Source of the DNA: an uncultured Caldisericota bacterium
Lineage (GTDB): Bacteria > Caldisericota > Caldisericia > UBA6126
Direction of reading: 5' to 3'
NCBI GenBank assembly: GCA_964422555.1
Contig: CAYRBR010000002.1
Span: 4,434 to 68,433 of the forward strand
DNA length: 64,000 bases
Shown: positions 411 to 19,477 of the stretch, piece after piece
How positions within the stretch are numbered: position 1 is the first letter of the stretch
Layout: every line of letters starts with the position of its first letter
Position numbers and translations under genes: made by a program
Notes under the pieces: model-generated
Database searches by the model: none
Seen by the model: only the letters and a program-made list of their open reading frames with translations
Told to the model about the DNA's origin: nothing

Positions 411-1235
411 ATGTCTTTACAAATTATTATATATTCTAGTCTAATACTACTTGGTCTTGGTCTTTTATTCGGCTGGATGCTGGGTGTTTTCTCTAACGTT
501 TTTTATGTAAAAGAAAATCCTCTTATTGAAAAGATTAAAGATGCGCTTCCACAAGCTAATTGCGGAGCCTGTGGCTATTCAGGTTGTGCTTCTTTTGCGG
601 AAGCAGTAGCAAGTGGGAAAGCACCAATTAATGGTTGTGTAGCCGGTGGACAAGAGACAATTGATAGCATCGCTACCATAATGGGCATTTCTGCTTCGAA
701 TAATGCAAAACGCTACGTAGCAGTTGTACTCTGCAAAGGTGGAAAAGATGAATCAATAAAAAATGCCACAGCCATGGGAGCAAGTAGTTGTAGAATGGCG
801 CATGAGCTAAGATTATATGACAGAGTTTGTCGTTTTGGTTGTTTAGGACACGGTGATTGCGAAGATGCATGTCCATTTGGAGCTATTTCAATGGGAAAGA
901 ATGGTTTACCAAAAATTGACACAACCATTTGTACAGGTTGTGGTATCTGTGTTGATACATGCCCTAGAAACATCATTAAATTGTTTCACGATACGAAACG
1001 TGTCCTTGCTCTGTGTAGTAACAATGAAAAGGGTTCATTTGTGCGCAAAGCATGTAAAGTCGGATGTATATCTTGTGGTCTTTGTATAAAAAAATGTCCT
1101 CAAAAGGCAATTGTTTTTAAAGACAATTTACCTGTTATAGATATTGAAAAATGCAATCTTTGTGGTATTTGTGTTACTGTGTGTCCAGTTAATGCATTAT
1201 CTTTGAGAAAAGCACTTACGGAGAAAGATGAGTAA
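411..1235 (+). CDS. rnfB: Rnf complex subunit B: N-terminal membrane anchor plus polyferredoxin domain with several 4Fe-4S Cys motifs
   Basis: ATG at 411 preceded by AGGTGGG; a GTG at 402 is an alternative start. N-terminal TM helix. Cys clusters CGACGYSGC and repeated CxxCxxCxxxCP motifs (CTGCGICVDTCP, CISCGLCIKKCP, CNLCGICVTVCP). Confidence 0.85.
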   Translation: MSLQIIIYSSLILLGLGLLFGWMLGVFSNVFYVKENPLIEKIKDALPQANCGACGYSGCASFAEAVASGKAPINGCVAGGQETIDSIATIMGISASNNAKRYVAVVLCKGGKDESIKNATAMGASSCRMAHELRLYDRVCRFGCLGHGDCEDACPFGAISMGKNGLPKIDTTICTGCGICVDTCPRNIIKLFHDTKRVLALCSNNEKGSFVRKACKVGCISCGLCIKKCPQKAIVFKDNLPVIDIEKCNLCGICVTVCPVNALSLRKALTEKDE

Positions 1236-3564: not shown

Positions 3565-3609
3565 GTAAAACAAGTTTATTCTTCATTTGATGCCAACTTA
3601 GTAAGCAAG

Positions 3610-4002
3610 GTGTATTCTTGTGATCAAAAAAGTAAAAGCCCTAACTTTAGTAACCCTCTTTATCAATCCCTCATTGTCCTTGATCCTGGATCAGCAAATC
3701 GGCTTTATATTGAAGGTTTCCTAAATAAGTTTAAAAAAGCTTTTATTGCTTCTTCTTCCTCTAAAAAACTAGCTCCCGAGATTAGCTCACATTTAGTACC
3801 TGTAAAACTAAACATGAACGATAAAGCCAAAGCCATTACTATGAAAGATTCCTGCAATACATTTGAAGAAGCTGGCCTTGCGTTTATTGTGTGTAAAAAG
3901 AAACACTGTAAGTACTATATTTCTTCCTATCAACTACCAAAGAAGATAATGGGTATTGAAATTCTTTCAGTTCATGAAATTGTAAAGTCACTTGAAAAAT
4001 GA
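3610..4002 (+). CDS. Small hypothetical protein (130 aa, GTG start; start uncertain)
   Basis: ORF between the large membrane protein gene and apbE. Its end overlaps the apbE start by 11 nt. No recognisable motifs. Confidence 0.3.
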   Translation: MYSCDQKSKSPNFSNPLYQSLIVLDPGSANRLYIEGFLNKFKKAFIASSSSKKLAPEISSHLVPVKLNMNDKAKAITMKDSCNTFEEAGLAFIVCKKKHCKYYISSYQLPKKIMGIEILSVHEIVKSLEK

Positions 4003-4999
4003 TATGAAAAAAAAGGATTCCTTTTTTTCTTCCGTAATTTTTCTTTTAGTTTTGTCCTTTTTTTTTCTATCATGCAGAAATACTCCCTTAAATCAAAAAA
4101 TTAAATGGCACTCTAAAACTCTTTTTTATATGGATACTTTTCTTACAATTCAGATACCTTCGGAGTCTGATTCTGATACCCTTCTTCTGTCAGTTCAAAC
4201 AATACTAGATGACATAGATAAGAAATTAAACGCATATTCCATTGGTTCTGATGTATATAGAATCAATCAAAATGCTGGGTACACACCGATTACCGTAAGT
4301 GACGAAACTATTTTTGTTCTTAAGAAATGTATTGATTTTTCGGACGATAGTAAGGGTTTATTCGACATTACATTCCTTCCAATACAGGATTTGTATGGTT
4401 TCTCTGACAAAGAGTATCGTATACCCTCTGAATTAATCCTTACTGAGACATTGAAGCTTGTTGATTATAAAAATATTATTATTAATGAAGAACATTCAAC
4501 CGTACTCCTTGCAGAAAAGCAGATGAGAATAAATCTCTCTGGCATAATTAAAGGCTATTCGCTTGATAAAATTACAGATTTTCTTCAATCATCATCTGTA
4601 GAGTATTATAAGATTGACTTTGGAGGAAACTTAGCTTTATCCTTACCTGATTCAATCCCTGTAGGGATTGAAAGCCATGAAAATAGTATCCAGAACACTA
4701 TCATGATGAAGCAGGGCTTTATATCTACCTCATCCGGTTCTCATCAGTCATTCATAAAAGGTGAACAGCTTTACACACATATAGTTAATCCAACCACAGG
4801 CTCTGCTAAACCTTGTGTCTTATCTGCTACCGTTAAAACTTGGAGTGGCATGGAATCTGATTTTCTTTCAACCTACTTTTTTTTAGCAGGTTCCAACCCT
4901 AGTCCCTTAATCATAAAAAAATACCTTCCTCAAGCCTCTGTTTATATCTATGATCTTGATGGCCATTTCAGTACTTATGCAGAAAATTACAATCCGTAA
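3992..4999 (+). CDS. apbE: FAD:protein FMN transferase (ApbE family) lipoprotein
   Basis: Signal peptide with a Cys (FFFLSC). ApbE-like motifs: YSIGSDVYRINQNAG (S-x-S-x-x-S-R-l-N), GIIKGYSLDKI, IDFGGNLAL, ISTSSGSHQSF, HIVNPTTGSAKP. Canonical position after rnf genes. Confidence 0.75.
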   Translation: MKNDMKKKDSFFSSVIFLLVLSFFFLSCRNTPLNQKIKWHSKTLFYMDTFLTIQIPSESDSDTLLLSVQTILDDIDKKLNAYSIGSDVYRINQNAGYTPITVSDETIFVLKKCIDFSDDSKGLFDITFLPIQDLYGFSDKEYRIPSELILTETLKLVDYKNIIINEEHSTVLLAEKQMRINLSGIIKGYSLDKITDFLQSSSVEYYKIDFGGNLALSLPDSIPVGIESHENSIQNTIMMKQGFISTSSGSHQSFIKGEQLYTHIVNPTTGSAKPCVLSATVKTWSGMESDFLSTYFFLAGSNPSPLIIKKYLPQASVYIYDLDGHFSTYAENYNP

Positions 5000-5486
5000 C
5001 TTAACAACTTTTTCATTGTTACTAACCATCGGTATCATTCTTCACTTTGTGGAGTTTTATATTTCCATTCCGATTGGTGGGTTTGTTTTGAAGCCAGGTG
5101 TTTCGAACATTGTTATCCTTATTTGTCTATATTATTTTGGAATCAAAGAAACAATTTTACTTGCAGTTTCAAGAATTCTCTTATCTGCTCTTTTCGAACC
5201 ATCCATTAATAGTATGACTATCGCGATAAGTTTTGGGGGAGTTGTTTTAAGTCTTACCGCAATTATTCTGCTTTTTTGTTATAGTCGTTTTAATATCAAA
5301 ATTATTAGTGTTATTGGAGCTATTCTGCACAATATCGGTCAACTTATTGTCGTACTATTTTTTATTCCTTGCAATTATTTATTATACTATTTACCATTAA
5401 TAGTTGTTTCTGGTTTTTTTGGAGGCTATATTACTGGCTGGATAGCAGAAGTGTCTTTGCAAAAGATAGATTCTATTAATACTTAG
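4950..5486 (+). CDS. Small polytopic membrane protein (5-6 TM; Gx-transporter/ECF-S-like fold suspected)
   Basis: Hydrophobic 178-aa ORF overlapping the apbE 3' end. Alternative ATGs at 4959 and 4977 reduce the overlap. No enzymatic motifs. Confidence 0.5.
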   Translation: MILMAISVLMQKITIRNLTTFSLLLTIGIILHFVEFYISIPIGGFVLKPGVSNIVILICLYYFGIKETILLAVSRILLSALFEPSINSMTIAISFGGVVLSLTAIILLFCYSRFNIKIISVIGAILHNIGQLIVVLFFIPCNYLLYYLPLIVVSGFFGGYITGWIAEVSLQKIDSINT

Positions 5487-5507
5487 CAAGATGAAATGGA
5501 GTAGAGT

Positions 5508-6545
5508 ATGAATTTTGGTCATTTTGGAAAAGATATTGCAATCGATCTTGGAACCGCTAACACACTTGTTTATATTGCTGGACAAGGGATAATGCTCAGA
5601 GAGCCTTCTATAGTTGCAGTACGTCGTGAAAATGGGGAAATTATTGCAATTGGTAACGAAGCAAAACGTATGGCGGGTCGTGTTCCAGAGGCAATACAGA
5701 TAATTCGTCCCTTGAAAGATGGGGTAATTGCAAATTTTGAGGTAACTCAAAAACTTATAGAATACTTAATACAAAAAGTAGGAGCAAGAAAAGGTTTTTT
5801 TGGGTTTATTAAGCCTCGATTAGTTATCGGAATCCCCTCTGGTATCACTGAAGTTGAAATGCGAGCAGTAGTTGAAGCAGGATATCAAGCAGGAGCTCGT
5901 TATGTTGGTTTAGTTCAAGAACCTATGGCAGCTTCTTTTGGAGCAAACCTTCCTGTAAGTGAACCTACAGGCAATATGATTGTTGACATTGGTGGAGGCA
6001 CATGCGAGGTAGCCGTTGTTTCATTAAATGGAATCGTCGCTAAAAATTCAATACGAATTGCCGGTGATGAAATGAATGAGGCAATTCTTCAATACCTTAA
6101 AAGACAGTACAACCTGCTTGTTGGAATTTATACTGCTGAAGAAATAAAAATTGAAATTGGAACTGCATATCCTAGTGATCAGGTAACAACAGCCGAAATT
6201 AAAGGAAGAGATCTCATTACGGGTCTTCCTCGAACTGTAACAATAACCTCAGAAGAGACGCGTATCGCATTAAATGACGTCTTGATTAGTATTATGGAAG
6301 CAGTTAAAGCAACTCTTGAAAATACACCTCCAGACCTTGGAGCTGATATTATTGACAGAGGTATATTTCTTGCAGGTGGAGGTTCCTTAATTCGTGGAAT
6401 GGCCAGATATATTTCAGAAGGTACTGGCATTCTAGTATCAAATGCTGAAAACCCTGTTCTTTGTGTAGCGCTAGGTGCAGGTAAAATAGTTGAAAACCTT
6501 GAAAAACTTATGCCACTTTTATTGAAGGTGAAGTATTATAAATAA
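5508..6545 (+). CDS. mreB: Rod-shape determining actin homolog MreB
   Basis: N-terminal DIAIDLGTANTLVY phosphate-1 motif, DIGGGTCEVAV, and a GGGSLIRG C-terminal motif. About 345 aa. Confidence 0.9.
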   Translation: MNFGHFGKDIAIDLGTANTLVYIAGQGIMLREPSIVAVRRENGEIIAIGNEAKRMAGRVPEAIQIIRPLKDGVIANFEVTQKLIEYLIQKVGARKGFFGFIKPRLVIGIPSGITEVEMRAVVEAGYQAGARYVGLVQEPMAASFGANLPVSEPTGNMIVDIGGGTCEVAVVSLNGIVAKNSIRIAGDEMNEAILQYLKRQYNLLVGIYTAEEIKIEIGTAYPSDQVTTAEIKGRDLITGLPRTVTITSEETRIALNDVLISIMEAVKATLENTPPDLGADIIDRGIFLAGGGSLIRGMARYISEGTGILVSNAENPVLCVALGAGKIVENLEKLMPLLLKVKYYK

Positions 6546-7367
6546 ATGTCTATAAAAAAAAGAGGCTTTTTGTGGCTTGTTATCTCCCTAGTCTTCTTTT
6601 TAGCTATTTCTTTTTATTGGAGCTTTAGTGATTCATCTTTTTCAATTGCATCCCAAGGATTTGTTAGAAATACTATAAGCCCCGTAGGAAAAATGTTCTC
6701 GTCATTTGGTTCTTCGATACATAATTTGCTTGCAAATCTACAATCCTACCCAAGTTTAGTCGAAAACAACCAAAGACTTTTGATTGAGAATGAATCATTA
6801 AAGAATGAAATTAAGATACGTGACCAAATTCAGTTTGACAATGAAAGATTTTCAATGTTACTAGGAATAGTGCAGGATAATCCTAACACATATATCCCTG
6901 CATCTATCATTTATCGAACCCCAGACTCTACTATGAATTTTATAATCAACAGGGGTTCAAATTCGAATGTTAAAGATGGATTGGCTGTGGTTTCCCCAGT
7001 TTACAAGAACAGTTCACTATCACATTTCCAACTCCTTGGTAAAACGATAGATGTTTCAAAACTCGACTCTCCAGTTTTATCACTCTATGATGAAAACTCA
7101 AATGTCAGTATCCGTAATCTCCGCAATAATGTAAATGGAACTGTATCCTTCAATTCAAAAAACAACACTCTGTATGTAAAATTCTACAAAAAAGAAGATT
7201 ATCAGCTCAATGATATTTTAGTTGTTAGTTCTTTTTCTTCATTGCCAAATGATTTACTGGTGGGATCTATTGTAGAAATTCAGCCGACTGAATCAATACA
7301 TTACCTAGCGATCGTTAAACCTGTCAAAGATTTTTCAAAGATTACAGAGGTTCTTGTTATTCAATGA
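6546..7367 (+). CDS. mreC: Rod-shape determining protein MreC
   Basis: Starts 1 nt after the mreB stop. N-terminal TM, coiled-coil segment, then beta-rich C-terminal domain. Position between mreB and mreD. Confidence 0.7.
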   Translation: MSIKKRGFLWLVISLVFFLAISFYWSFSDSSFSIASQGFVRNTISPVGKMFSSFGSSIHNLLANLQSYPSLVENNQRLLIENESLKNEIKIRDQIQFDNERFSMLLGIVQDNPNTYIPASIIYRTPDSTMNFIINRGSNSNVKDGLAVVSPVYKNSSLSHFQLLGKTIDVSKLDSPVLSLYDENSNVSIRNLRNNVNGTVSFNSKNNTLYVKFYKKEDYQLNDILVVSSFSSLPNDLLVGSIVEIQPTESIHYLAIVKPVKDFSKITEVLVIQ

Positions 7368-7840
7368 TCTACATAATTATTGTATTCCTTCAAGTTTTCA
7401 TTGTATGCCTTGATTTGTTTTTTTTTCCAAGTTTACTTCATTCCAGAACACCAATCGGCTTATCTTTGCTTTTTGCTATTTCCATGGTTTACCTGTTTCA
7501 AACCAAAGGTTTGTTTAGTATTCTCCCCGGATTACTCCTAAAACTCAGTTTTCTACCTACAACAATCGTAGTACCCACACTTATAGCATATTCACTATTT
7601 ATATTGCTATCTTTTCTTTTCAAAAACAATCAACAATCCCATGCAAACTCTTTGTTTATTCTTTTCTCTTATGTGGTGATTCTTAGTATTTTTATTTTTC
7701 AGTTTTTCTTTTCTTGCCCTAACCCTTTTTACACATTTATTCTAAATCTACTTTTATATACTTTTGTTATTCTTCCTTTGTTCTATATTTTTTCCAAAAA
7801 ATTGTTTTCGATCGCTCTCAGAAAAAAGCCTATTCTATGA
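7364..7840 (+). CDS. mreD: Rod-shape determining protein MreD (polytopic membrane)
   Basis: ATGA overlap with mreC. Very hydrophobic 158-aa protein. Operon position between mreC and mrdA. Confidence 0.6.
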   Translation: MIYIIIVFLQVFIVCLDLFFFPSLLHSRTPIGLSLLFAISMVYLFQTKGLFSILPGLLLKLSFLPTTIVVPTLIAYSLFILLSFLFKNNQQSHANSLFILFSYVVILSIFIFQFFFSCPNPFYTFILNLLLYTFVILPLFYIFSKKLFSIALRKKPIL

Positions 7841-9627
7841 ATCATATCCCTTTAGTAAAAAAGAATATCGACATTCATCCTGTTAAGATCGTTCTTTTTA
7901 TTTTAATCATTTCAGCATGTTCCGTATTCCTTATAACAAAACTCCTTATCTTGCAAGGATTCGAACAAGAGAAATATGCTCATTTAGCAACTAATAATTA
8001 CAACCGGTACAGTCTTCAAGAAGCTCCAAGGGGTACCATATATGATCGTAATGGTATTGTTTTAGCAGAGGATGTTCCCACTTTTCATCTTTATGCAGTT
8101 CCCAGCGAAATACCACAACCAAAATACTCCTCAAAATTAATACATGACTTAATAGGTATAAACCAAGAAACAGTCATTCAAAAAATTACTGAAAATTATT
8201 CTTTTGCCGAGATCTTGCTAAAAGAAAACCTATCCTACGAAGAAAGAATTCGTCTGGAAGAAAACGAATACAAGTTAAAGGGTTTCTTCATAAAAGAAGG
8301 GTATAAGAGGTTTTACCCTAAAAATTCTTGTCTGTGCCATGTTATAGGATACACGGGAGTTATTTCACAAGATGATCTGGCTAGAAAGAAATATTCCGCA
8401 TATCAGCCAAATGAGAGGATAGGCATTTCAGGTATAGAAAGATACTACGAAATGTTACTTCATGGCACACCTGGACTTAAGAAGCAAACAATTGACGTAT
8501 ACGGTCATGTCGTGGATGAAATAACTGAAAAAGAAGTTATAAAAGGGAAAGATATCTACCTAACCATTGATTCCAGACTTCAGGAAAAAGCAGAAGAAAT
8601 CATACAGGATCATCGGGGATGCCTTGTTCTTATGAATTGCAATAATGGTGAAATCATAACTTGCGCATCAAATCCTACTTTTGATCCAAATTACTTCTCT
8701 GGACCCAGACCTATTGAAACTTGGAACTTATGGGTGGAGAATAGAGCTTTTTTCAACATTGCAACCATGGGACAATATCCACCTGGTTCAACATTCAAGC
8801 CCATTGTCGCTTTATTTGGATTAGTAAGTGGTTATCTTACAGATTCCGAATATATTACGTGTACTGGTTCTTTGAAAATCCCCGGACAAGAAGATAAATA
8901 CAGATGCTGGGTATATCCTTCTTCACATGGACCCTTACAATTAAAGAGAGCAATACAGGTATCTTGTGATGTTTATTTTTACCTTGCTGCCGAAAGATAT
9001 CCTATTGAATCTTTCATATCATTTCTAAAAGATTTTGGAGGCATATCAAAAGCTACGGGAATTGATTTACCGTCTGAAGAAAGTGGCTTTCTTGGTAGTC
9101 CGGAATGGAAAGAAAAATTTAAGGGACAATCCTGGTTTAAGGGTGATTCTATGAATTTAGGAATTGGGCAAGGTTTCTTATCTGTTACACCTATTCAGAT
9201 GACAAAATTATATGCTAAAATTGGGAACAAAGGGAAACATATTCAACCTCACCTCCTACTTGTTGAAAACTCTGAATCAAATTCAACTGATTCGTTAGAT
9301 AATTATGCAGATCACAATATTTCACATTACGACTACGATACTATTTTAGAAGGTATGCACATGACTACTCTGTATCCTGGTACTGCATCCGGACTATATA
9401 CTAACTCAGTAGAGATCGCTGCAAAAACCGGCACTGCATTGGTTCAGGGACAAGGTAGAGATATCCAGCATCTTTGGCTTGGTTCAATATTCCCCTATGA
9501 AGATCCTCAGTATAGTTGTTTCCTTCTGTTCGAAAATTCGCAATATCAATTAGCAAGTAATTTAACTCCATTTTTAAAAAATTTTATTGTATACTTTTAT
9601 CAGCTTGATGCATCGGAGGTGAATTAA
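7837..9627 (+). CDS. mrdA: Penicillin-binding protein 2 (elongasome transpeptidase)
   Basis: ATGA overlap with mreD. N-terminal TM. Motifs S-x-x-K (GSTFKP), S-x-D (SCDVYFY, as in PBP2) and KTG (KTGTA). Confidence 0.85.
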   Translation: MNHIPLVKKNIDIHPVKIVLFILIISACSVFLITKLLILQGFEQEKYAHLATNNYNRYSLQEAPRGTIYDRNGIVLAEDVPTFHLYAVPSEIPQPKYSSKLIHDLIGINQETVIQKITENYSFAEILLKENLSYEERIRLEENEYKLKGFFIKEGYKRFYPKNSCLCHVIGYTGVISQDDLARKKYSAYQPNERIGISGIERYYEMLLHGTPGLKKQTIDVYGHVVDEITEKEVIKGKDIYLTIDSRLQEKAEEIIQDHRGCLVLMNCNNGEIITCASNPTFDPNYFSGPRPIETWNLWVENRAFFNIATMGQYPPGSTFKPIVALFGLVSGYLTDSEYITCTGSLKIPGQEDKYRCWVYPSSHGPLQLKRAIQVSCDVYFYLAAERYPIESFISFLKDFGGISKATGIDLPSEESGFLGSPEWKEKFKGQSWFKGDSMNLGIGQGFLSVTPIQMTKLYAKIGNKGKHIQPHLLLVENSESNSTDSLDNYADHNISHYDYDTILEGMHMTTLYPGTASGLYTNSVEIAAKTGTALVQGQGRDIQHLWLGSIFPYEDPQYSCFLLFENSQYQLASNLTPFLKNFIVYFYQLDASEVN

Positions 9628-9628
9628 A

Positions 9629-10327
9629 TTGCCCTCAAAAAGAACACCCGATACTGTAGTCAATTTTAAAGGAGTCTCCAACGGGATTCTTATGTCATTA
9701 GAGCTTGACGATTATGAATTTGATAAAGTTGTCAGGAAAGCAGTTTCAATATATAAAAAGAAGCGAAGCTTTTTTGGACAAAATGTTGATTTGTTCGCCA
9801 CTGGTTTTACCAGAGACCTTACTGTTGACGAAGTTGGCATGACTAGGAAAATGTTTGACTATTTGGCTCACAAAGAAGTTCTACCCTACAAAGATACTCT
9901 GCCACAAAATCCCCAATCCTCTTCGAATGAATCTATTATTCAGACTGACAAACTTTCACCCTTTGAAGATATTGAAACGAATGAAAACAGTAATGAATTT
10001 TTAGTAATTGGTAAGGATGTTCGAGCTGGCATAGTAGTCCATTCCCCCGGGAATATAATTGTCTTTGGAAATATTAATTTTGGCGCAAAGGTGATTGCAG
10101 GTAAATCTCTTTATGTTTATGGTTCAATAAAAGGGGATGTAACGTTTGCATCTAGTAAAACTTGCAATCAGGCAATACTAACCTGTTTAAAAATGCAAGC
10201 AATAAGTATCCATACGAAAAAGGAGTTAATTAAAAATCCCATTCAAACCTTAGAGACTGAATCCTTTCCCCTGTATATTTTATACAATAATGGTAACACA
10301 AGCATTGTTACAATGAATGATGGATAA
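9629..10327 (+). CDS. minC: Septum site-determining protein MinC
   Basis: TTG start 6 nt after GGAGGTG. C-terminal beta-helix region GIVVHSPGNIIVFGNINFGAKVIAGKSLYVYGSIKGDV typical of the MinC C-domain. Followed by minD. Confidence 0.7.
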   Translation: MPSKRTPDTVVNFKGVSNGILMSLELDDYEFDKVVRKAVSIYKKKRSFFGQNVDLFATGFTRDLTVDEVGMTRKMFDYLAHKEVLPYKDTLPQNPQSSSNESIIQTDKLSPFEDIETNENSNEFLVIGKDVRAGIVVHSPGNIIVFGNINFGAKVIAGKSLYVYGSIKGDVTFASSKTCNQAILTCLKMQAISIHTKKELIKNPIQTLETESFPLYILYNNGNTSIVTMNDG

Positions 10328-11117
10328 CAAAGGTCAGATCATTGTTTTTACATCCGGTAAAGGTGGGGTTGGTAAATCAACTTTAGTTGCAAACATTGGT
10401 ACTGCAATCGCTCTTCAAAAAAAGAGAGTTGTTGTGATTGATATGGATATTGGCCTAAGAAACCTTGATATGATTCTTGGACTAGAACGTAAAGTTAGAA
10501 CAAACATCGTTGATGTAACCAAAGGCTTCAGTTCTGTTGACGATGCACTCATTTTTGACAAACGGACAAACAACTACCTATCTTTGATAGCAGCTTCCCA
10601 AAGTGACATGAAAAAGGATATTAATTTATTTAAATTCCATGGTGTTCTTACCTATCTTGAAAAGCGTTTTGATTTTATTTTAATTGATTCTCCCGCAGGA
10701 ATTGAAGAAGGTTTCAGCAAGTCTATTTACTATGCAAAAAAAGCGTTTGTTGTTGTTAACCCTGAGATTTCTTCTATTCGTGACGCGGATAGGGTTTTAG
10801 CATTGCTTGAGAGTCATCGAATCAAAAAGGATATTTTTCTGATCATTAATCGATATAATCATAAACTCAGTAAACGAAGCTACTATATTTCTTCTGACGA
10901 TATCGTTGCTCTTCTCCATGTCCCCTGTGTTGGCATTGTATCAGAAGATGAACGCATCCTCAGGCAGAATAATTCAGGCAGCCCATTTGTATACCAAAGC
11001 AACCTTCCTATTGCTACAGAAATAAAAAAAATATCCCGGATGATTATTGGGAAATCCCCGCAGAAATCTAAATTGAATGTTTCTAAATCTTTGTGGAATA
11101 AAATGAAGAACAGTTAA
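10317..11117 (+). CDS. minD: Septum site-determining ATPase MinD
   Basis: Deviant Walker A SGKGGVGKST. ParA/MinD-fold 266-aa protein with a C-terminal amphipathic tail. Confidence 0.9.
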   Translation: MMDNKGQIIVFTSGKGGVGKSTLVANIGTAIALQKKRVVVIDMDIGLRNLDMILGLERKVRTNIVDVTKGFSSVDDALIFDKRTNNYLSLIAASQSDMKKDINLFKFHGVLTYLEKRFDFILIDSPAGIEEGFSKSIYYAKKAFVVVNPEISSIRDADRVLALLESHRIKKDIFLIINRYNHKLSKRSYYISSDDIVALLHVPCVGIVSEDERILRQNNSGSPFVYQSNLPIATEIKKISRMIIGKSPQKSKLNVSKSLWNKMKNS

Positions 11118-11129
11118 TAGGAGTTTAAC

Positions 11130-11363
11130 ATGAGTTCAAAAGCCTCTAATCGACTAAAAATAATTCTTAATGAAGATAGAAAAATTCTATCTAAACAAAG
11201 TGAAAAAGATCTTAGAAAAAAGATTGCCACTGTAATGAGTGAATATTTTGCAATAGACAAACGAAAAATACGTATCAATGTGATAAAAACCAATCATCAG
11301 GCCGAATACAAATTAACGGCTGACATGCCCATTAAAAAAAGTGAGTTAGAAAAAGACCAATGA
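11130..11363 (+). CDS. minE: Cell division topological specificity factor MinE
   Basis: 77-aa protein following minD. Preceded by AGGAG. Confidence 0.75.
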   Translation: MSSKASNRLKIILNEDRKILSKQSEKDLRKKIATVMSEYFAIDKRKIRINVIKTNHQAEYKLTADMPIKKSELEKDQ

Positions 11364-12532
11364 GGATCATTCATGTTGGAAGCCTCTTTATTGGTCTTCA
11401 GAACCTTGGGAAGTCAACTGATAATAGCTACATGTTTTCGCAAGTTCAAGACTATTTTGACTACCTGTCATTTATTGCTGAATATGTAGATAAGAACTCT
11501 ATCGATGTGGTTTTATTCTCTGGTAATTTATTCTTTTCTTCACACCCAAGCCCTTTCTTACAATGGAAATTAGGGAATGTGTTGGAAAAAATGCACAAAA
11601 GTGATATAAAAATTTTTATACTCCAGAACCAATATGATCAATCAGACTCATACTCTTCCAGTAGTGAAATATGTAGTTATTCTATGCTAGATAAATACGC
11701 TAGATTTGTTAACAAACCTAGCGTTCATCCAATCAAAAGAAAAAAGGATTCTATTCAAATTGCCTTTTTACCCTTTAAAAGAAGTCCCTTCTCAACAGAC
11801 TCTAAAAACCTTGGTAGTAACAAAACGAAAGAGTTTGAAAAGGAGCTTAAAATACTCTCTTCACAAATTGACTCGGATATACCATCCTTTCTTATGACAC
11901 AAGCTTTAATCGACAATGTTAAACAATACTACCTGTTTAATTCTCTGCCAGAAATCTCTTCATCAATATCTGATTCTCTCCCGTTTCACTATATCTCTCT
12001 TTCGAATTTTCCATTTTCAAAGATAATTCCTGTTCATCGTCGAAACAACCAAACTGTGTTTTATTCTTATCCTGGTACATTGGGTGAAATCGAATTTGAA
12101 GATTCTTTAATTGATCGCGGTTTTATTTTGTATGACACAAAAAACAACAATTCTCCTGTTTTCGTACCTAATGCAGCAAAACGTCACACTGCTCTTATTC
12201 GGGTTCATGGACAAAACGAAGAAGAGGTATGGGAAAAACTAAATGAAGAATTTCTTTTAAACGATTACAGAGACTATATTACCACAATTGTCGTTCAAGC
12301 TCCCTTAAGAATAAATCCAAACGTAATTCGTGATAAGTATTCTGAGCATTGTTACTACATACAAAGAATCGTATCGCAAAAAGAGATTGTTAAATGTGAA
12401 GAAACGTATAACCAAATTGGCTTTTCAGATTTTTTAAGATCCTATTTAACCTTACAAGATATTCAAGACAAGGACTTTTTAGAAGATGTTTATAAACAAG
12501 GCAACCAGTATTACGAGAAGACAAAACTGTGA
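11360..12532 (+). CDS. sbcD: SbcD/Mre11-like protein with degenerate phosphoesterase motifs (predicted non-catalytic)
   Basis: ATGA overlap with the minE stop. The N-terminus MRIIHVGSLFIG parallels SbcD MR-I-HTSD-HLG but lacks the D and H metal ligands. GD becomes GN in motif II (VVLFSGNLFF). GNHD becomes QNQYD. Confidence 0.55.
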   Translation: MRIIHVGSLFIGLQNLGKSTDNSYMFSQVQDYFDYLSFIAEYVDKNSIDVVLFSGNLFFSSHPSPFLQWKLGNVLEKMHKSDIKIFILQNQYDQSDSYSSSSEICSYSMLDKYARFVNKPSVHPIKRKKDSIQIAFLPFKRSPFSTDSKNLGSNKTKEFEKELKILSSQIDSDIPSFLMTQALIDNVKQYYLFNSLPEISSSISDSLPFHYISLSNFPFSKIIPVHRRNNQTVFYSYPGTLGEIEFEDSLIDRGFILYDTKNNNSPVFVPNAAKRHTALIRVHGQNEEEVWEKLNEEFLLNDYRDYITTIVVQAPLRINPNVIRDKYSEHCYYIQRIVSQKEIVKCEETYNQIGFSDFLRSYLTLQDIQDKDFLEDVYKQGNQYYEKTKL

Positions 12533-15510
12533 TGATTACACCAAATTTCATTGAAATCAATAATTTCCTCTCGTATGTAGGTACACATAAATTATCCTTC
12601 CAAGAAAATTCTTACTATCTAGTCTCTGGTAAAAATGGAGCTGGCAAAAGTGCTTTAGCTGATACAATGATTTTTTCTTTGTTTGGTATTCTTCGTTCAG
12701 AATATTCTCCCTTCAATAATCAAATTCTTTCTTTTGGAGCTGAATCAGGCTATATCCAGTTTGATTTCTTTTTAAATGACACTTTGTGGAGAATTCGACG
12801 TGATTTTTCTACTGATTCAACAAATAATCACATTCAGTTTAAAAAACGCCAAAATACATACTGGAAGAACTATACTCTTTCTGAAGATTCCTTGACTCAA
12901 CAGCAAATCTTAGATACTTTAAAAATAACTCCTCAACAGTTTTTCATGACTTTTTTTAAGACAAACAGTTATCCCTCTTTCTATGAGTTTCTTTCACTTA
13001 ATAATGTTGATAAGTATACTGCTGTATCGCGATTTCTTAATGTACCCTCTTTTGATTTGATTCAAAAATTTGTAGAGAAAGATCTCCAAGAATACGCAAT
13101 AAGGAAAGAATATCTTTCTACTTTTATAAACCAGAATAAATCGAAAATAAAAGAAAAAAAGCAACTTGAAAAAATCCTTCATGAGAGTAAAGATAAGTTG
13201 GCTAAAACGAAAGAACAGATACTACATTTAAAGCAAGATATCGATCAACAAGATTTACTCTGTAAAGAAATTGAAAATGGCCTTCAAAATAAAAAAATAT
13301 TGATGGAACGAATTCAGTATCTACGAAACAACCAGAATGAAAAGCGAACTGAAAGACAACTTCTTTCTGAAAAATTAAATGAATTGCAAAATGCAATTAA
13401 AATCCAGCATGAAATTGAAAATGGGTATAAACAGTTATCTGACTTGATCGTTTTAAACAAAAAATACAATGAAAATTTTGAACAGAGAGAAAGAATTCAA
13501 CATCAAATTGATGAAATTCAAACTATTCTAGATGATCAAGAAATCGCATTAAAGAAAAAGGCAAATGATCTAAAACAAGCTGAAGATGAATACTCTGAAA
13601 AGAAAAAATATCTTCCTGATTTAAATTTAAAAATGCAAGCAATCCAATCCAAGTTGAAAGAAATGGAAAAAGTTCGCTATCAAGTTCAAAAACTTGAAAA
13701 AGAAAAAGAATCCATTCAAAAGGAAATTGATGTCCTTAATGAAAAAATTGGGATGTTGAAAAAAGAAAGGATCATCATACGAGAAAAGAAAGAAAAAATC
13801 TATAAAGAAGTAGTCTCTTTCGAACAAATTATTCAAAAAGATCAAAGTACGAAAAAGAAATTACAAATCCTAAAAGAGAATAAAGAGAAGGTTAAATTAT
13901 TACAAGACCAAATTGATTTAGAAGAAAAAAAGAAGAACATTTTATCTCAACAAAATGAACGTTTCGAGTCCATGATAGAAACGCTAAACGAGAAGATCAG
14001 TATTTTCCACATAACGGATGAATTTGAAAATCGATGTCCAGCTTGCGGTACTCCACTTACAAAAGAAAAAGAATCTGAAATACTCTTGAACTACAAGCGT
14101 GATTTAGAGATGAAAAAATCTACATTAAATAGAAACCTGAATACGCTCCAAAAAATGGAAAACAAGATAGTCTCACTGAACAGTGATAAAAATGTTCTTT
14201 CTTCGGATTTTCATCTTGAGGAAGATTTACAACAACAATATTTGCAAATACAAGAATGTAAAGCCTCTATAAGAACTAAAACCGAGAATCACTACCGAAC
14301 AAAACTTCAGGAATCGAAAATTGAAGAAGAGCTTAACAAAACTACTTACTCGATAAACAATCTAAAAAGTCGTTTGAAAACAGCTGATCAGCAATTCATA
14401 AATTTAACACTTGTCCTTTCTAACCAAACTGTATTGGAAAACAATTTAGGAGATCTTCACAAACAAATTTCAGAAGCTTTAGAGGTAGACCAAAAATTAC
14501 CCAGTATTCTAAAACAATTAATTGAAACAAAGCGGAAAATTGAAACAAAAAACTATTCTCAAGACAATTGGAAAAAACTAAATGAACTTAAAAAAAGAAT
14601 CCTCTCTATTCCTTACAGTGTAGCTGAACACAATCAAATTAAGAATAAAATTAATCAACTTAAATATTTCGAAACCGAAAAAAGAGTAATGGATGAGAAA
14701 TTAATTGAAAAAGACAGTGTTTTGAACCAATTATCCTCTGTCGATAAAAAACTTGGTTCTCTTCAATCTGAGATTGATAAAAATATTGATTCAATAAAAG
14801 GTATACCCTACCAACAAAAGGATCTCTATGCTGAACAAGATAAGAAAAAATGTTTAGTTTCAAATAGAGAGCAATCTGAACTCGAAGAAAAAGATTTGGA
14901 AATAGAGATTTCGAAGTTTGAACAAAATATGGAAGACATTCACCGACTACAAATAAAATATGGTGAAGCACTTGAAGAATTTAATACATACCTTAAAAAA
15001 GAAAAAAGTGTTACAATATGCAGAGAACTCTTAAGAGAAACCGCTATAGGAGTTTTTATCGTTTCCCGTATTATACCCTCTCTTGAATTTTATGTTAACG
15101 GTATTTTATCTTCTCTCACAGACAACGATATACAGGCATCCGTTTCTTTGACGAAAAGTAAAAATAATAATCAACAACTTACAGTAAAGATTATTGAGAG
15201 CGGTCATTCAATCTCATATGAATACCTAAGTACCGCAGAAAAGTTTAAAGTTAACATTGCATTTCGGCTTGCCTTTTCTAAACTACTCTCAGATCATCCT
15301 GAAAACAATAGGGTGTTTTTATGTATTGATGACGATTTTGGTTCATTAGATTTAAATAGTAAAAATCAAATAATTCTCTCTTTGTTAAAGTTAAAGAAAT
15401 CCATCAATACACTTTTATTGATAACACATTCAAACGTGTTCCAGAATTGCTTTGACTACAGAATTCGTATTCAGAAAACCAGAAATACTTCATCTTTTTC
15501 ATATTATTAA
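12532..15510 (+). CDS. sbcC: SbcC/Rad50-like SMC-family ATPase with central zinc hook
   Basis: TGATG overlap with the sbcD stop. Walker A GKNGAGKS and long coiled-coil arms. CPACG hook near the midpoint (14044-14058). C-terminal signature-like LSTAEK, Walker-B-like FLCIDDD, D-loop SLD, H-loop LLITHS. Confidence 0.75.
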   Translation: MITPNFIEINNFLSYVGTHKLSFQENSYYLVSGKNGAGKSALADTMIFSLFGILRSEYSPFNNQILSFGAESGYIQFDFFLNDTLWRIRRDFSTDSTNNHIQFKKRQNTYWKNYTLSEDSLTQQQILDTLKITPQQFFMTFFKTNSYPSFYEFLSLNNVDKYTAVSRFLNVPSFDLIQKFVEKDLQEYAIRKEYLSTFINQNKSKIKEKKQLEKILHESKDKLAKTKEQILHLKQDIDQQDLLCKEIENGLQNKKILMERIQYLRNNQNEKRTERQLLSEKLNELQNAIKIQHEIENGYKQLSDLIVLNKKYNENFEQRERIQHQIDEIQTILDDQEIALKKKANDLKQAEDEYSEKKKYLPDLNLKMQAIQSKLKEMEKVRYQVQKLEKEKESIQKEIDVLNEKIGMLKKERIIIREKKEKIYKEVVSFEQIIQKDQSTKKKLQILKENKEKVKLLQDQIDLEEKKKNILSQQNERFESMIETLNEKISIFHITDEFENRCPACGTPLTKEKESEILLNYKRDLEMKKSTLNRNLNTLQKMENKIVSLNSDKNVLSSDFHLEEDLQQQYLQIQECKASIRTKTENHYRTKLQESKIEEELNKTTYSINNLKSRLKTADQQFINLTLVLSNQTVLENNLGDLHKQISEALEVDQKLPSILKQLIETKRKIETKNYSQDNWKKLNELKKRILSIPYSVAEHNQIKNKINQLKYFETEKRVMDEKLIEKDSVLNQLSSVDKKLGSLQSEIDKNIDSIKGIPYQQKDLYAEQDKKKCLVSNREQSELEEKDLEIEISKFEQNMEDIHRLQIKYGEALEEFNTYLKKEKSVTICRELLRETAIGVFIVSRIIPSLEFYVNGILSSLTDNDIQASVSLTKSKNNNQQLTVKIIESGHSISYEYLSTAEKFKVNIAFRLAFSKLLSDHPENNRVFLCIDDDFGSLDLNSKNQIILSLLKLKKSINTLLLITHSNVFQNCFDYRIRIQKTRNTSSFSYY

Positions 15511-15579
15511 ATTGACAAATTTAGTTTGTTCTTTTTAATGATCAACGTATTTTTATGGTTTTGAAAGCGGGGATCTATC

Positions 15580-15777
15580 TTGAAACAAATAGAAAAGATT
15601 ATCATCGATGAGAAACGTTGTAAACATTGTAGCATTTGTGTTCATATCTGCCCAAAGGAAGTCTTGGAAGAAGATTCAACTGGCACAATATTTGTCGAAA
15701 ATTTAGCAGCTTGTATCGGCTGCATGTCTTGCCAGGATCATTGTCCAGATTTAGCAATTGAGGTGATTACATCATGA
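15580..15777 (+). CDS. 2-oxoacid:ferredoxin oxidoreductase delta subunit (2x[4Fe-4S] ferredoxin)
   Basis: 65 aa with CKHCSICVHICP and CIGCMSCQDHCP. ATGA-coupled to the alpha subunit. Confidence 0.7.
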   Translation: MKQIEKIIIDEKRCKHCSICVHICPKEVLEEDSTGTIFVENLAACIGCMSCQDHCPDLAIEVITS

Positions 15778-16898
15778 GTTACCGAAGAGAAATCTTACAA
15801 GGCGCACAAGCGTGTGTAAGGGGAGCAATAAAATCTGGTATAGGTTTTTTTGCTGGATATCCTATAACACCCTCTACTGAGGTTGCAGAACTTTTTTCAA
15901 CTGAACTAGCGAAAGAGCAAAAGATTTTCATCCAAATGGAAGATGAAATTGCTAGCATAACTGCTGTCATTGGCGCATCTTTGGCTGGAAAAAAAGCAAT
16001 GACTGCAACATCTGGTCCTGGTTTTTCTTTAATGCAAGAAGGATTGGGATATGCCTGCATGGCAGAAGTACCCTTAGTTCTTATAAATGTGCAACGGGGA
16101 GGACCCTCCACCGGTTTACCTACTCGGGTTGCACAAGGTGATGTCATGCAATCCAAATGGGGAACCCACGGTGATCACCCTATGATTGTGCTCTGTCCCT
16201 CTTCTGTACAAGAACTCTACGAGATGACAATTGAAGCATTTAATCTTTCAGAGCAATATCGTAACCCTGTTATTATATTGACCACCGAAACTATCGCTCA
16301 TATGCGAGAAAAAGTCGAAATTGATTTATCGGTAGAACCAAAGATCTACAATCGACTCACTCCAAGACTAAAAATTGGTGAAAAATATCTTCCCTATGGT
16401 AAATTTGCTGACGACGTACCCATTATGGGAAATATCGGCGACGGTCTTGGCACAAGTATTACCGGTTTGGTTCATATGGAAAATGGCTTTCAAAGCGCAA
16501 ATTACGAAGTAGCAGATCGATTGATTCGTAGAATTAATCGAAAGATTGAAAAACATACTAAAGATATCTTTTCCATGGAAATCATTAACCCAAACGCCAA
16601 AAAAATGTTCATTTCATATGGAGTTGCAAGCCGAACCATTAACTCTTTGATTCATTCAGATCATGATGATATTGGTTTAATTCGTGTTAAAACTCTATTT
16701 CCAATTGACCCCGAACAAATTCGAAAAGCAACCGAGCATGCATCTCAAATCTTTGTTACTGAATTAAATCTTGGTCAGTATTACCAGGAGATCCAGAAAA
16801 TTCTTCCTAATCGTAATGTTCATTTAATTGAGAAAATTGGCGGAGAACTAATCCCTCCAAAAGAAATGTTAAGAAGAATTGAGGAATACAATGATTAA
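15774..16898 (+). CDS. 2-oxoacid:ferredoxin oxidoreductase alpha subunit (KorA/VorA/PorA family)
   Basis: 374 aa with typical alpha-subunit N-domain GYPITPSTEV and GPGFSLMQEGLGYA. Sits in a delta-alpha-beta-gamma cluster. Confidence 0.85.
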   Translation: MSYRREILQGAQACVRGAIKSGIGFFAGYPITPSTEVAELFSTELAKEQKIFIQMEDEIASITAVIGASLAGKKAMTATSGPGFSLMQEGLGYACMAEVPLVLINVQRGGPSTGLPTRVAQGDVMQSKWGTHGDHPMIVLCPSSVQELYEMTIEAFNLSEQYRNPVIILTTETIAHMREKVEIDLSVEPKIYNRLTPRLKIGEKYLPYGKFADDVPIMGNIGDGLGTSITGLVHMENGFQSANYEVADRLIRRINRKIEKHTKDIFSMEIINPNAKKMFISYGVASRTINSLIHSDHDDIGLIRVKTLFPIDPEQIRKATEHASQIFVTELNLGQYYQEIQKILPNRNVHLIEKIGGELIPPKEMLRRIEEYND

Positions 16899-17706
16899 AG
16901 GTGAAAAGTTTTATCATCCAGATAGATTGCCCACTATATGGTGCCCTGGTTGTGGTAATGGTATAGTATTACACGGTGCTATGGAAGTTTTAGATGATTT
17001 AAATTGCACAAAAAAAGATGTAATTTGTGTATCTGGTATTGGGTGTTCCTCGAGATCTGCAACATACACCCAATTTGATGAAGTTCATACACTGCACGGT
17101 CGTGCAATTCCCTTTGCTACTGCAATAAAACTTTGCCAGCCAGATAAGAAAGTCATTGTATTCACTGGTGATGGTGATTCAGCAGCAATAGGTGGGAACC
17201 ATCTAATCCATGCTGCTAGAAGAAACATTGATATTACTGTTATAGTATTTAACAATAGTATATATGGTATGACTGGCGGACAAGTATCACCGTTAACAGA
17301 ACCATTCAAGAAAGGAACTACTGCTCGTTTTGGTAACTACGAAAACCAATTTGATTTAGTTCAACTATTATTAGGAGCTGGGGGAACCTATATTGCAAGA
17401 ACAGGAACCTACTACTATAAGATGATGAAAAAGTATATGAAAAAAGCCTTTTTAAGAAAAGGTTTTTCCTTTATAGAAGTTATATCTCAATGCCCTGTCT
17501 ACTACGGTCGACTTAACAAGATGGCAAAACCCTATGATATGCTAACCAACCAAAAGGATATTCTTGTTTCAAAAGATAAGTATGAAACATTATCCTCTGA
17601 CGATAAATTTGGGAAATTACCCATTGGTGAATTTATTGAAGATAATTCTCAACCATCCTATTTAGAAAAAAGAGAGCAACTTTTAAAGAAGGTGAGAGAA
17701 ACATGA
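16891..17706 (+). CDS. 2-oxoacid:ferredoxin oxidoreductase beta subunit (TPP-binding)
   Basis: WCPGCGNG Cys motif and TPP-binding GDGDSAAIGGNH. ATG at 16891 follows GAGGA; the ORF track start at 16879 overlaps the alpha stop. Confidence 0.85.
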   Translation: MIKGEKFYHPDRLPTIWCPGCGNGIVLHGAMEVLDDLNCTKKDVICVSGIGCSSRSATYTQFDEVHTLHGRAIPFATAIKLCQPDKKVIVFTGDGDSAAIGGNHLIHAARRNIDITVIVFNNSIYGMTGGQVSPLTEPFKKGTTARFGNYENQFDLVQLLLGAGGTYIARTGTYYYKMMKKYMKKAFLRKGFSFIEVISQCPVYYGRLNKMAKPYDMLTNQKDILVSKDKYETLSSDDKFGKLPIGEFIEDNSQPSYLEKREQLLKKVRET

Positions 17707-18233
17707 GAGTAGAATTACGCTTTTCTGGTTCAGGTGGTCAAGGTTTAATTACCGCTACTCGTATTATTGCTAGAGCTGCATTAAGAGAAGGTAAAAATGC
17801 AATGCAATCTCAATCTTATGGAGCTGAGGCAAGAGGTGGTGCTACTAAAAGTGAAGTAATCATAAGCACTCGAGAAATATACTATCCTGAAATCGAAGTA
17901 CCTGATGTATTACTTTTAATGACAAAAGAAGCCTACCAAAAATATGGCACTACCATCAAAGAAGGTGGTATTCGTATTTTAGATAGTTTTTTCATACCTG
18001 ATTATGAAAGAATCTCTAAAGCTCGAACATACACAGAACCTTTTACTTCAATTTGTGAGGAAGAATTTAAAACACAGATCATGGCCAACATGATAATAAC
18101 AGGATATTTGATTGGTATCACTAAAGTTGTCTCTCTTGACTCATTTAATCAGGCCATTGGTGACTTTTTCTCAGATGATAAACTTACAAACAATATAAAA
18201 GCAGCAAAATTTGGCTACAATCTAGCAATCTAA
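17703..18233 (+). CDS. 2-oxoacid:ferredoxin oxidoreductase gamma subunit
   Basis: ATGA overlap with the beta stop. 176-aa gamma-family sequence GSGGQGLITATRI. Confidence 0.8.
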   Translation: MRVELRFSGSGGQGLITATRIIARAALREGKNAMQSQSYGAEARGGATKSEVIISTREIYYPEIEVPDVLLLMTKEAYQKYGTTIKEGGIRILDSFFIPDYERISKARTYTEPFTSICEEEFKTQIMANMIITGYLIGITKVVSLDSFNQAIGDFFSDDKLTNNIKAAKFGYNLAI

Positions 18234-18247
18234 TCATTCATTAAGAA

Positions 18248-19477
18248 CTATTCCAGGTCGTGTTCCCCAAGAGAACACGACCTTTTTTTATTTAAAAATA
18301 CGGCAACTAATTTACCAAAGAATCGAATCAAAACATTGTCTAGTTCTTTATGAGCTTTTTTCAACTCTTTTCGTATTTTAATACTTTGAGGACATAATTT
18401 TTCACATCTTCCGCAATCAGTGCATAAATCTACTCCAGATTTTCTTCCCCCCATGAGACCTAGTAACTTTCCTAAATAACTCAACTGTGCTGCTTTGCCA
18501 CCAAAAAAAGATTTATTATTGTAGTCACTAAAGATTCCTGGTATGTCCACGCCATATGGACAAGGCATACAATAACCACAACCCGTACATGGCACTTTCA
18601 TTAATCGATTGAAAATTACTTTTACGTCATTAATAATGTTAATTTCCTCTTCGGACATACTACCAGGTTTTGTAGTGTCAGCAACGTGAATATTCTCTTC
18701 TATATGAACTTGTACATTCATACCGCTTAACACAATTCCTACTTCTTTTTGATTCCAAATCCAGCGTAATGCCCAATGAGAAGGTGACCTGTTTTCCTTA
18801 TATTCATTGAATTTATGGATTGCCTCCATTGGTATTTTAGATGCTAAATTCCCTCCACGAAGGGGTTCCATTACTACTACACCGATATTTTTCTTATAAG
18901 CGTTGTATAAGCCAGCCACTCCAGCCTGATTATATTCATCTAAATAATTGTATTGGATTTGACAAAAATCCCAGGGAAAATCATTCAATATTTTTTGAAA
19001 TTCATCAGGCCTTCCATGAAATGAAAAACCGATAAAACGGATCTTTTTGTTGCGTTTCATTTCATTAACAAAAGAGATAATCCCGAATTCTTTTAATCTC
19101 TCCCATGTTTTAAAACTATCAAGCATATGCATTAAGTAGTAATCTATATAATCGGTTCCTAGTCTTTTTAGCTGAGTAAAAAAGAATTTTTTTATCTGTT
19201 CTGGTCTTTGTAACAAAAACGTAGGTAGCTTATCGGCTATATAAACTTTCTTCCGTATTTGATTTCTTGCAATAAACTTACCTAAAATTATCTCGCTTTT
19301 CCCTGCATGGTATGGATAAGCGGTATCAAAATAATTAACACCATTCTCGTAAGCATAAAGCAATTGGTCATAGGTTTTTTTCTCATCAATGCGAGTATTC
19401 TTTGTTGGAAATCTCATACATCCGTACCCTAAAACTGATACAAAATCCCCGCCTTTGACTAATTGTTTATATCTCAT
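18248..19477 (-). CDS. Aldo/keto reductase fused to a C-terminal 2x[4Fe-4S] ferredoxin-like domain
   Basis: AKR N-domain (GYGCMRF, FDTAYPYHAGKSE). C-terminal CTGCGYCMPCP and CTDCGRCEKLCP. Confidence 0.8.
   Translation of the reverse strand: MRYKQLVKGGDFVSVLGYGCMRFPTKNTRIDEKKTYDQLLYAYENGVNYFDTAYPYHAGKSEIILGKFIARNQIRKKVYIADKLPTFLLQRPEQIKKFFFTQLKRLGTDYIDYYLMHMLDSFKTWERLKEFGIISFVNEMKRNKKIRFIGFSFHGRPDEFQKILNDFPWDFCQIQYNYLDEYNQAGVAGLYNAYKKNIGVVVMEPLRGGNLASKIPMEAIHKFNEYKENRSPSHWALRWIWNQKEVGIVLSGMNVQVHIEENIHVADTTKPGSMSEEEINIINDVKVIFNRLMKVPCTGCGYCMPCPYGVDIPGIFSDYNNKSFFGGKAAQLSYLGKLLGLMGGRKSGVDLCTDCGRCEKLCPQSIKIRKELKKAHKELDNVLIRFFGKLVAVFLNKKRSCSLGEHDLE
18256..18289. terminator. Rho-independent terminator between convergent genes (10-bp GC-rich stem GGTCGTGTTC/GAACACGACC, 7-nt loop, T7 run)
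   Basis: Perfect inverted repeat 18256-18282 followed by TTTTTTT. Lies 23 nt after the gamma-subunit stop and overlaps the last codons of the minus-strand AKR gene. Confidence 0.55.

Follow-up and report, generated by a model that had tools for sequence, protein, structure and literature searches.

The Mre11-Rad50 (SbcCD) complex is among the most conserved of DNA-repair machines, and its nuclease motifs are treated as defining. Single ligand substitutions abolish the nuclease activity of Mre11 (yeast mre11-D56N and H125N; P. furiosus H85), and in ABC, SMC and Rad50 ATPases hydrolysis is classically abolished by changing the Walker B Glu to Gln. Laboratory alleles of these kinds still assemble the complex, bind DNA and tether it, but do not cleave or hydrolyse. 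In one account of the canonical complex, Rad50 heads with bound ATP keep DNA clamped in a resting state, and hydrolysis then brings about the change to a nuclease-competent cutting state (PMC8028314). Mre11-Rad50 also tethers DNA ends and has nuclease-independent roles (PMC10418313, PMC4937313). The Lamassu systems have been proposed to derive from SbcCD via loss of the SbcD nuclease domain (PMC12663957). Here, we analysed a window of 64,000 nucleotides from an uncultured Caldisericota bacterium (GenBank assembly GCA_964422555.1, contig CAYRBR010000002.1, positions 4,434 to 68,433 of the forward strand), in which two overlapping genes encode an SbcD/Mre11-like protein that keeps none of the catalytic residues of the nuclease and an SbcC/Rad50-like partner whose ATPase motifs are degenerate. 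No natural ligand-less Mre11 or SbcD, and no SbcCD in Caldisericota, was found described in the literature searched.

The SbcD-like open reading frame (ORF) lies at 11360..12532 on the plus strand, encodes 390 residues from an ATG start and has the N-terminus MRIIHVGSLFIG. Its ATG overlaps the minE stop codon by four nucleotides (ATGA; the junction reads ccaATGAgg), and its own stop codon overlaps the start of the SbcC-like gene (ctGTGATGatt). The chance of a 390-codon open frame at the base composition of the window is ~6e-13 and the frame is conserved in other assemblies; the ORF is therefore a real gene. The encoded protein is a homologue of SbcD/Mre11, as the initial annotation had proposed, and lies below the curated family thresholds. 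A Pfam scan returned nothing even at E ≤ 10, including PF00149 (Metallophos). The NCBIfam model TIGR00619 (sbcd) matches residues 1–187 (E = 2.4e-12, 47.2 bits, below its curated cutoff of 77.65), and PRK10966 scores 17 bits against a cutoff of 450. Single-sequence phmmer searches of PDB sequences gave only marginal Mre11/SbcD matches (E of ~0.04).

A word-indexed search of 5.8 billion proteins retrieved the protein itself and two relatives of ~40% identity, and nothing more. A clade profile was built from these three proteins and searched exhaustively against 1.84 billion representatives, giving 438 proteins at E ≤ 0.001 and 103 at E ≤ 1e-10; the same profile matches Mre11 in the PDB at E = 3.4e-5. 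Three clusters at E < 1e-30 make up the clade, and next, from E = 7e-25, come SbcD-type proteins of ~400 residues. These further matches bear textbook SbcD motifs (HISDLHLG, GGDIF, GNHD, AHV and GHVH in P0006), and a G-x-x-N-Y-G-K segment after motif I that is common to the canonical matches reads GLQNLGK in the window protein. P0006, the best-scoring canonical SbcD, is encoded at 46–1891 of a short contig (L009), where it is followed by a uracil phosphoribosyltransferase gene and not by sbcC; this arrangement would represent an SbcD without an adjacent SbcC.

Relatives were found in three metagenome-assembled genomes (MAGs; L002–L004), labelled Caldisericota, Caldisericia or (doubtfully) Calditrichota, and on two other metagenome contigs (L005 and L006), with three more loci (L012–L014) inside the same lineages. 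Including the window there are four lineages in total, and the window protein is ~32–37% identical to the others. Genome and metagenome scans yielded more loci but no new lineage and no intermediate form; in the sequence databases searched, which hold billions of proteins, the ligand-less state is confined to this rare clade. The contig of L002 (DAIMET010000003.1) is titled 'Calditrichota bacterium', a label that looks wrong, as its proteins are 89–99% identical to those of the Caldisericia MAG L004. The SbcD-like protein of L014, from another assembly, is identical to that of L002.

The catalytic columns were tabulated from a MAFFT L-INS-i alignment of eight clade members and 133 SbcD matches. 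Eight positions were considered, namely the seven residues that bind the two metal ions (D, H; D; N; H; H, H) and the catalytic His in motif III. All eight residues are carried by 129 of the 133 SbcD matches, the remaining four being two without the N-terminus and two that differ at motif III. None of the eight is kept in the window protein, which has S8, F10, N56, Q91, Y92, Q181, N216 and P218 at these positions. Thus, when set against canonical SbcCD/Mre11-Rad50 (E. coli SbcCD, PDB entries 6S6V, 6S85 and 7YZO; T. maritima; M. jannaschii), the window SbcD has all seven ligands and the catalytic His replaced. On the plus strand, the former motif I (D-x-H) is now S8-L9-F10 (11381..11389; D-F/Y-F in the relatives), the former motif II (G-D) is G55-N56 (11522..11527; assigned from the alignment and Mre11 structures), the former motif III (G-N-H-D) is N90-Q91-Y92-D93 (11627..11638; G-K/Q-Y-D in the relatives, with Y92 and D93 invariant in the clade), the former motif IV His is Q181 (11900..11902) and the former motif V (G-H-x-H) is S215-N216-F217-P218 (12002..12013; G/S-G-x-P in the relatives and G-G-Y-H in L005). 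In P0024 and P0033 the motif III Asn-His pair is T-F and E-L, respectively, with all other ligands kept; these may be other partial degenerations or local misalignments.

The protein and the clade profile were also aligned to solved Mre11 structures in HMMER. In these alignments SGN is matched to GD49 of P. furiosus Mre11, with N56 aligned to D49, and YD is matched to N84-H85, with the Q/K-Y pair aligned to N84-H85; against M. jannaschii Mre11, MQ is matched to LH and GGQP to GHIH. Three independent alignments agree, and a misalignment that would hide shifted ligands was rejected. The initial annotation, made by eye, had read Ser and Phe for the Asp and His of motif I, had placed motif II within SGNLFF and motif III in QNQYD, and had seen no clear GHxH motif. 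These assignments were correct, NQYD being the part equivalent to GNHD, and no shifted ligand was recovered when the positions were scored. Of the 27 noncatalytic columns that are conserved in at least 85% of the canonical sequences, 18 are kept in the window protein (H5, G12, G17, D31, D49, G55, P63, D93, P138, P175, Y211, L214, Y237, G239, F246, G254, F268 and R275). The difference between 0/8 catalytic and 18/27 other conserved columns (Fisher one-sided p = 0.001) shows that residue loss is targeted at the catalytic sites.

F10, N56, Y92 and Q181 are invariant across all four lineages, from which it follows that the core of the catalytic site was lost once, in their common ancestor. The relatives retain D8, and the last His of motif V is kept in L005. 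The window protein is the most degenerate, with 0/8 catalytic residues compared with 1–2/8 in the relatives. It could be argued that the protein is still a nuclease or phosphoesterase with a remodelled site, binding Mg2+ or Ca2+ through Ser, Asn, Gln and Asp, or acting through Lys in the relatives. D93 and D49 are retained, S8, N56, Q91, Q181 and N216 are potential weak ligands, the relatives combine D8 with K91, and conservation of the remodelled pocket suggests that it continues to be important. We consider this highly improbable because all eight catalytic positions are changed, two of them to the non-ligating residues Phe and Pro, the transition-state His has become Tyr, and degeneration extends to the partner ATPase, whose canonical counterparts bring the complex into its cutting state (see below). 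We know of no binuclear metallophosphoesterase that works with such a set of residues.

The structure of the SbcD-like protein was predicted with AlphaFold2. The model calculated from an 81-sequence alignment has a predicted local distance difference test score (pLDDT) of 91.2 and a predicted template-modelling score of 0.84; an earlier run on three clade sequences only had given a pLDDT of 43.8. The predicted Mre11 architecture is complete and consists of the phosphodiesterase sandwich, a capping domain (residues ~254–340) and a C-terminal helix-loop-helix (residues 355–388), so that the fold retention assumed in the initial annotation is borne out by the model. The top Foldseek matches are all Mre11 or SbcD (E down to 1.5e-19) and include the E. 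coli structures 6S6V and 6S85; among the matches are full-length ones to Mre11 chains of Mre11-Rad50 complexes. Conservation is highest in the capping domain, where 30% of the columns are invariant in the clade. This domain contains a helix, EKLNEEFLLN-YR (residues 292–304, 12233..12271, plus strand; helix 287–300 in the model), that is near-invariant in the clade and not conserved in canonical SbcD. This acidic helix may be a new or reinforced interaction surface. The C-terminal helix-loop-helix (residues ~355–388, 12422..12529, plus strand) was assigned from the secondary structure of the model; it is the predicted equivalent of the Rad50/SbcC-binding domain, and its sequence is poorly conserved.

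The SbcC/Rad50-like gene (12529..15510, plus strand) starts at GTG 12529 or ATG 12532 and encodes 993 residues; an adjacent co-oriented SbcC-like gene is also present in all relatives. The protein has AAA_23, SMC_N and Rad50_zn_hook matches, of which AAA_23 and Rad50_zn_hook are weak. TIGR00618 matches at E = 3e-18 (65.1 bits), far under its cutoff of 478.5, and Rad50 structures are matched at E = 1e-15 with the single sequence and 1.6e-22 with the clade profile. Motifs were read from alignments to M. jannaschii and P. furiosus Rad50 and to the canonical SbcC of a metagenome contig, L010, which is described below. On the plus strand, Walker A (GKNGAGKS, 12628..12651) and the H-loop (ITH, 15421..15429) are intact in the alignment to Rad50 structures, as is the zinc hook at the centre of the presumed long antiparallel coiled coil (C503-P-A-C506, 14035..14046), which gives the weak Rad50_zn_hook match and through which the PDB hook structures 1l8d and 6zff are matched. 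The Q-loop region (MTFFKTNSYPSFYEFL, 12946..12993) lacks the Gln of the canonical IMQ, IKQ or IRQ; the alignment is uncertain by about one residue here, but Gln is absent from all three candidate positions throughout the clade, with S, T or N around the expected site. The signature is LSTAE (15226..15240) instead of LSGGE, and LSQGE or LSSGE in the relatives. In the Walker B and D-loop segment LCIDDDFGSLD (15319..15351), the Asp residues of both Walker B and the D-loop are present, SLD of the D-loop is intact, and Asp935 takes the place of the catalytic Glu. The partner thus differs from canonical SbcC in the missing Q-loop Gln, in LSTAE for LSGGE and in Asp for the Walker B Glu, and, like the SbcD-like protein, it lies below the curated Pfam and NCBIfam thresholds.

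The residue at the Walker B Glu position is Asp in the window, Gln in L002, L003, L004, L012 and L014, Asn in L006 and L013, and Glu in L005 only. This scatter suggests that the Glu was lost several times independently, after an earlier event. The suggested order of losses is nuclease ligands, Q-loop Gln and first signature Gly first, and the Walker B Glu later. The length of the SbcC-like protein is held at 988–993 residues in the clade (995 in the canonical L010 orthologue). Judged from this length and the states of the motifs, selection seems to act on ATP binding and on the rod-and-hook architecture but not on efficient hydrolysis.

Among L002–L004 the SbcD-like gene has a ratio of nonsynonymous to synonymous substitution rates (dN/dS) of ~0.09 and the SbcC-like gene one of 0.05, compared with 0.014–0.065 for PBP2, minD, minE and korAB. 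Both ORFs are intact in every assembly, though synonymous sites are saturated between lineages. The two genes are maintained by purifying selection and are not decaying; dN/dS and ORF integrity led us to reject a pseudogene. A related possibility is that the pair is a functionless remnant on the way to loss, the nuclease having become dispensable and the genes persisting by inertia or weak residual selection. This would account for both proteins evolving faster than all of their neighbours, for the further losses in the window lineage (S8, N90, S215 and N216) and for the drift of the Walker B position among D, Q, N and E. It would not readily account for dN/dS values of 0.05–0.10, which are within or near the range of the neighbouring essential genes, for frames of ~390 and ~990 codons that are intact in all lineages (the chance survival of even one such frame is as small as calculated above), for the invariance of the substituted residues F10, N56, Y92 and Q181 and near-invariance of the 13-residue clade-specific motif, or for protein lengths conserved to within a few residues. 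We regard a remnant as very unlikely.

P0007, which is among the best-scoring canonical matches, is encoded on the 31-kb metagenome contig L010 (JGI 3300035198 contig Ga0315269_0000405). The genes of L010 follow the order PBP2-minC-minD-minE-sbcD-sbcC-ferredoxin-korA-korB-korG, as they do in the window and in every clade member, and its sbcD-sbcC pair lies at 3528–7747. The L010 SbcD is canonical (DLH, GD, GNHD, AH and GHIH), as is its SbcC of 995 residues (Q-loop Gln in MQ, FSGGE, IDEGFG and ITH). Between the window and L010 the neighbouring genes are 42–60% identical, SbcD 21% and SbcC 25%. Since a canonical sbcD-sbcC pair occupies the same position in L010, positional orthology identifies the window pair as a housekeeping SbcCD that has degenerated in situ; the pair is neither a paralogue nor a mobile defence module.

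This bears on Lamassu, with which the pair shares descent from SbcCD, a Rad50-like sensor that is kept and an Mre11 nuclease function that is abandoned. In Lamassu, the whole nuclease domain is lost (LmuC resembles the SbcD C-terminal domain only), the coiled coils are shortened and an LmuA effector is gained, whereas the window pair has a full-length Mre11 fold and, judged from protein length, a full-length coiled coil, no effector gene and a housekeeping context (PMC12663957 for LmuB-LmuC). Were the pair a Lamassu-type phage-defence sensor, the SbcD nuclease would have been given up and an unrelated effector would do the killing. PADLOC does give a weak LmuB match for the SbcC-like protein (E = 3.8e-13, 47.5 bits), and no match of any kind for the SbcD-like protein. 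The neighbours are minE and korDAB with no adjacent LmuA-like effector gene, the coiled coil does not seem to be shortened, and the pair sits in a stable core-gene neighbourhood at the position of a canonical SbcCD and not in a defence island. This defence role was rejected on gene context, and we give it almost no weight.

The minE gene (11130..11363, plus strand) is the last of mreBCD-mrdA-minCDE and lies directly upstream of the SbcD-like gene, which raises the question of a role in cell division. The disabled complex could have been recruited to division or segregation as a nonenzymatic SMC-like structural element of the nucleoid or division site instead of serving in DNA repair, co-transcribed and translationally coupled with minCDE (and mreBCD-mrdA). 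The overlap of its start with the minE stop codon would fit such coupling, as would the lack of an intrinsic terminator from mreB to the end of the kor genes in a scan of 3500–18500. The arrangement of min and SbcD-like genes is kept in every clade member, and both the length of the rod and its zinc hook have been preserved despite the loss of catalysis. There is also a weak NCBIfam match (E = 0.004) to arcadin-4, a Rad50-like protein that takes its name from a cytoskeletal gene cluster, which offers a precedent for co-option. In L010, however, a canonical SbcCD is found in exactly the same place after minE; the linkage is thus older than the degeneration and no specific feature of it. Because the clade is narrow and more than 15 genes are in conserved order, synteny carries little functional information. 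The special link to Min was downgraded for the linkage in L010, and a division role is in our judgement unlikely. In L004 (Caldisericia MAG JAXGOZ01), two ORFs correspond to minC and two to minD (8248–8926 and 8965–9761). Both genes are intact in L002, L003, L005 and L006, and the splits are probably sequencing or assembly frameshifts and less likely pseudogenes.

Our best explanation, which we hold with moderate confidence, is that the overlapping genes encode a catalytically disabled descendant of SbcCD (Mre11-Rad50) that would act as an ATP-binding DNA clamp or tether without catalysis. The SbcD-like protein keeps the predicted Mre11 architecture and has no residue to hold two Mn2+ ions or to act as the transition-state His, so that it would be unable to cut DNA by the Mre11 mechanism. 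The SbcC-like protein keeps the parts for ATP binding and for the long zinc-hooked rod (Walker A, the Walker B Asp, D-loop, H-loop and CxxC in ~990 residues); what it lacks are residues on which efficient hydrolysis and engagement of the heads depend, namely the Q-loop Gln, the first Gly of the signature and the Walker B Glu. The two proteins probably form a complex. As two SbcD-like and two SbcC-like subunits, this complex would still bind ATP and would clamp or tether DNA ends, hairpins or fork structures through its heads and hooks. It would stay in, or only slowly leave, the ATP-bound 'resting' state and would never reach the productive 'cutting' state. Its role would be that of a nonenzymatic DNA-end binder, bridge or scaffold, possibly passing DNA to other enzymes; the specific tethering or scaffold role is put forward tentatively, at slightly less than even chances.

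Several observations weigh against this explanation. The pair evolves faster than its neighbours (33–47% compared with 64–79% identity between the window and the relatives), and its faster evolution also fits partly relaxed constraint. The C-terminal helix-loop-helix, the region that would bind SbcC, is the least conserved, with 4% of its columns invariant. The alignment used for AlphaFold2 is dominated by canonical SbcDs, and the fold retention in the model is partly inherited from them. The window protein is in all likelihood without Mre11-type nuclease activity, a conclusion drawn from residues alone, and the polar replacements listed above as potential ligands could in principle hold metal weakly. 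L005 keeps the Walker B Glu, and hydrolysis may not be lost throughout the clade. As to the pseudo-nuclease that the initial annotation had described, the alignments, the model and the overlapping SbcC-like gene support it; the description was incomplete, and has to be extended by the degenerate partner, the clade-wide selection and the canonical positional orthologue.

The changes resemble engineered ones. Motif II Asp to Asn and a changed motif III His are features of nuclease-dead Mre11 (yeast mre11-D56N/H125N; P. furiosus H85 mutants, PDB entry 3DSD), and the Walker B Glu to Gln change of L002–L004 is that of Walker B E-to-Q Rad50 and SMC proteins. Unlike the engineered alleles, those of the clade are natural, multiple, fixed and maintained by selection, and are found in both subunits at once. 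The clade is a natural, selected, doubly disabled Mre11-Rad50. Other inactivated scaffolds with the metallophosphoesterase fold, namely Vps29 (retromer), the B subunits of DNA polymerases alpha, delta and epsilon, and Plasmodium GAP50, belong to different families with different partners, and none is in the Mre11/SbcD branch. Both proteins lack defining catalytic features of their families and score below the curated thresholds, which makes 'SbcCD nuclease' a wrong label for their function. In one source a clade member is called 'DNA repair exonuclease SbcCD nuclease subunit', a name that probably credits it with too much activity.

The window has a G+C content of ~34% and resembles an ordinary chromosomal segment of an anaerobe. 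Its other genes include mreBCD, mrdA, minCDE, 2-oxoacid:ferredoxin oxidoreductases, a V-type ATPase, gatAB, ackA, dnaKJ and PFOR. An Rfam scan of the window found no RNA family, and the promoter and terminator scan of 3500–18500 gave counts no better than shuffles. The only convincing intrinsic terminator on the plus strand is a strong hairpin at 18255–18283 (11 bp, six of them GC) with a T-run, located downstream of the mreB to kor gene string between the convergent korG (plus strand) and an aldo/keto-reductase-like gene (minus strand). A 778-residue protein with a weak IgGFc_binding match only is encoded at 1228–3564, upstream of apbE; large ORFs are found at the same place in L005 (with a faint IgGFc_binding match) and L006 (with no Pfam match). 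On the minus strand, an ORF of 430 residues (51390–52682) is without a Pfam match at E ≤ 1e-5.

For the biology of the family, the canonical L010 pair, with its shared gene order, can serve directly as a reference for biochemical work and for establishing in which order the losses occurred. Were the complex, against our expectation, a structural machine that acts with the MinCDE/MreBCD apparatus in positioning or segregating the chromosome at division, the Rad50 family would gain a cellular role that is new in bacteria. The lineage is a natural separation-of-function experiment in which the architecture has been kept by selection while the nuclease site was erased and the ATPase site degraded. 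It argues that the bacterial complex serves a selectable purpose for which DNA need not be cleaved and ATP need not be turned over rapidly. End binding, tethering, clamping and scaffolding are candidates, and functions of this kind have so far been inferred mostly from engineered eukaryotic alleles.

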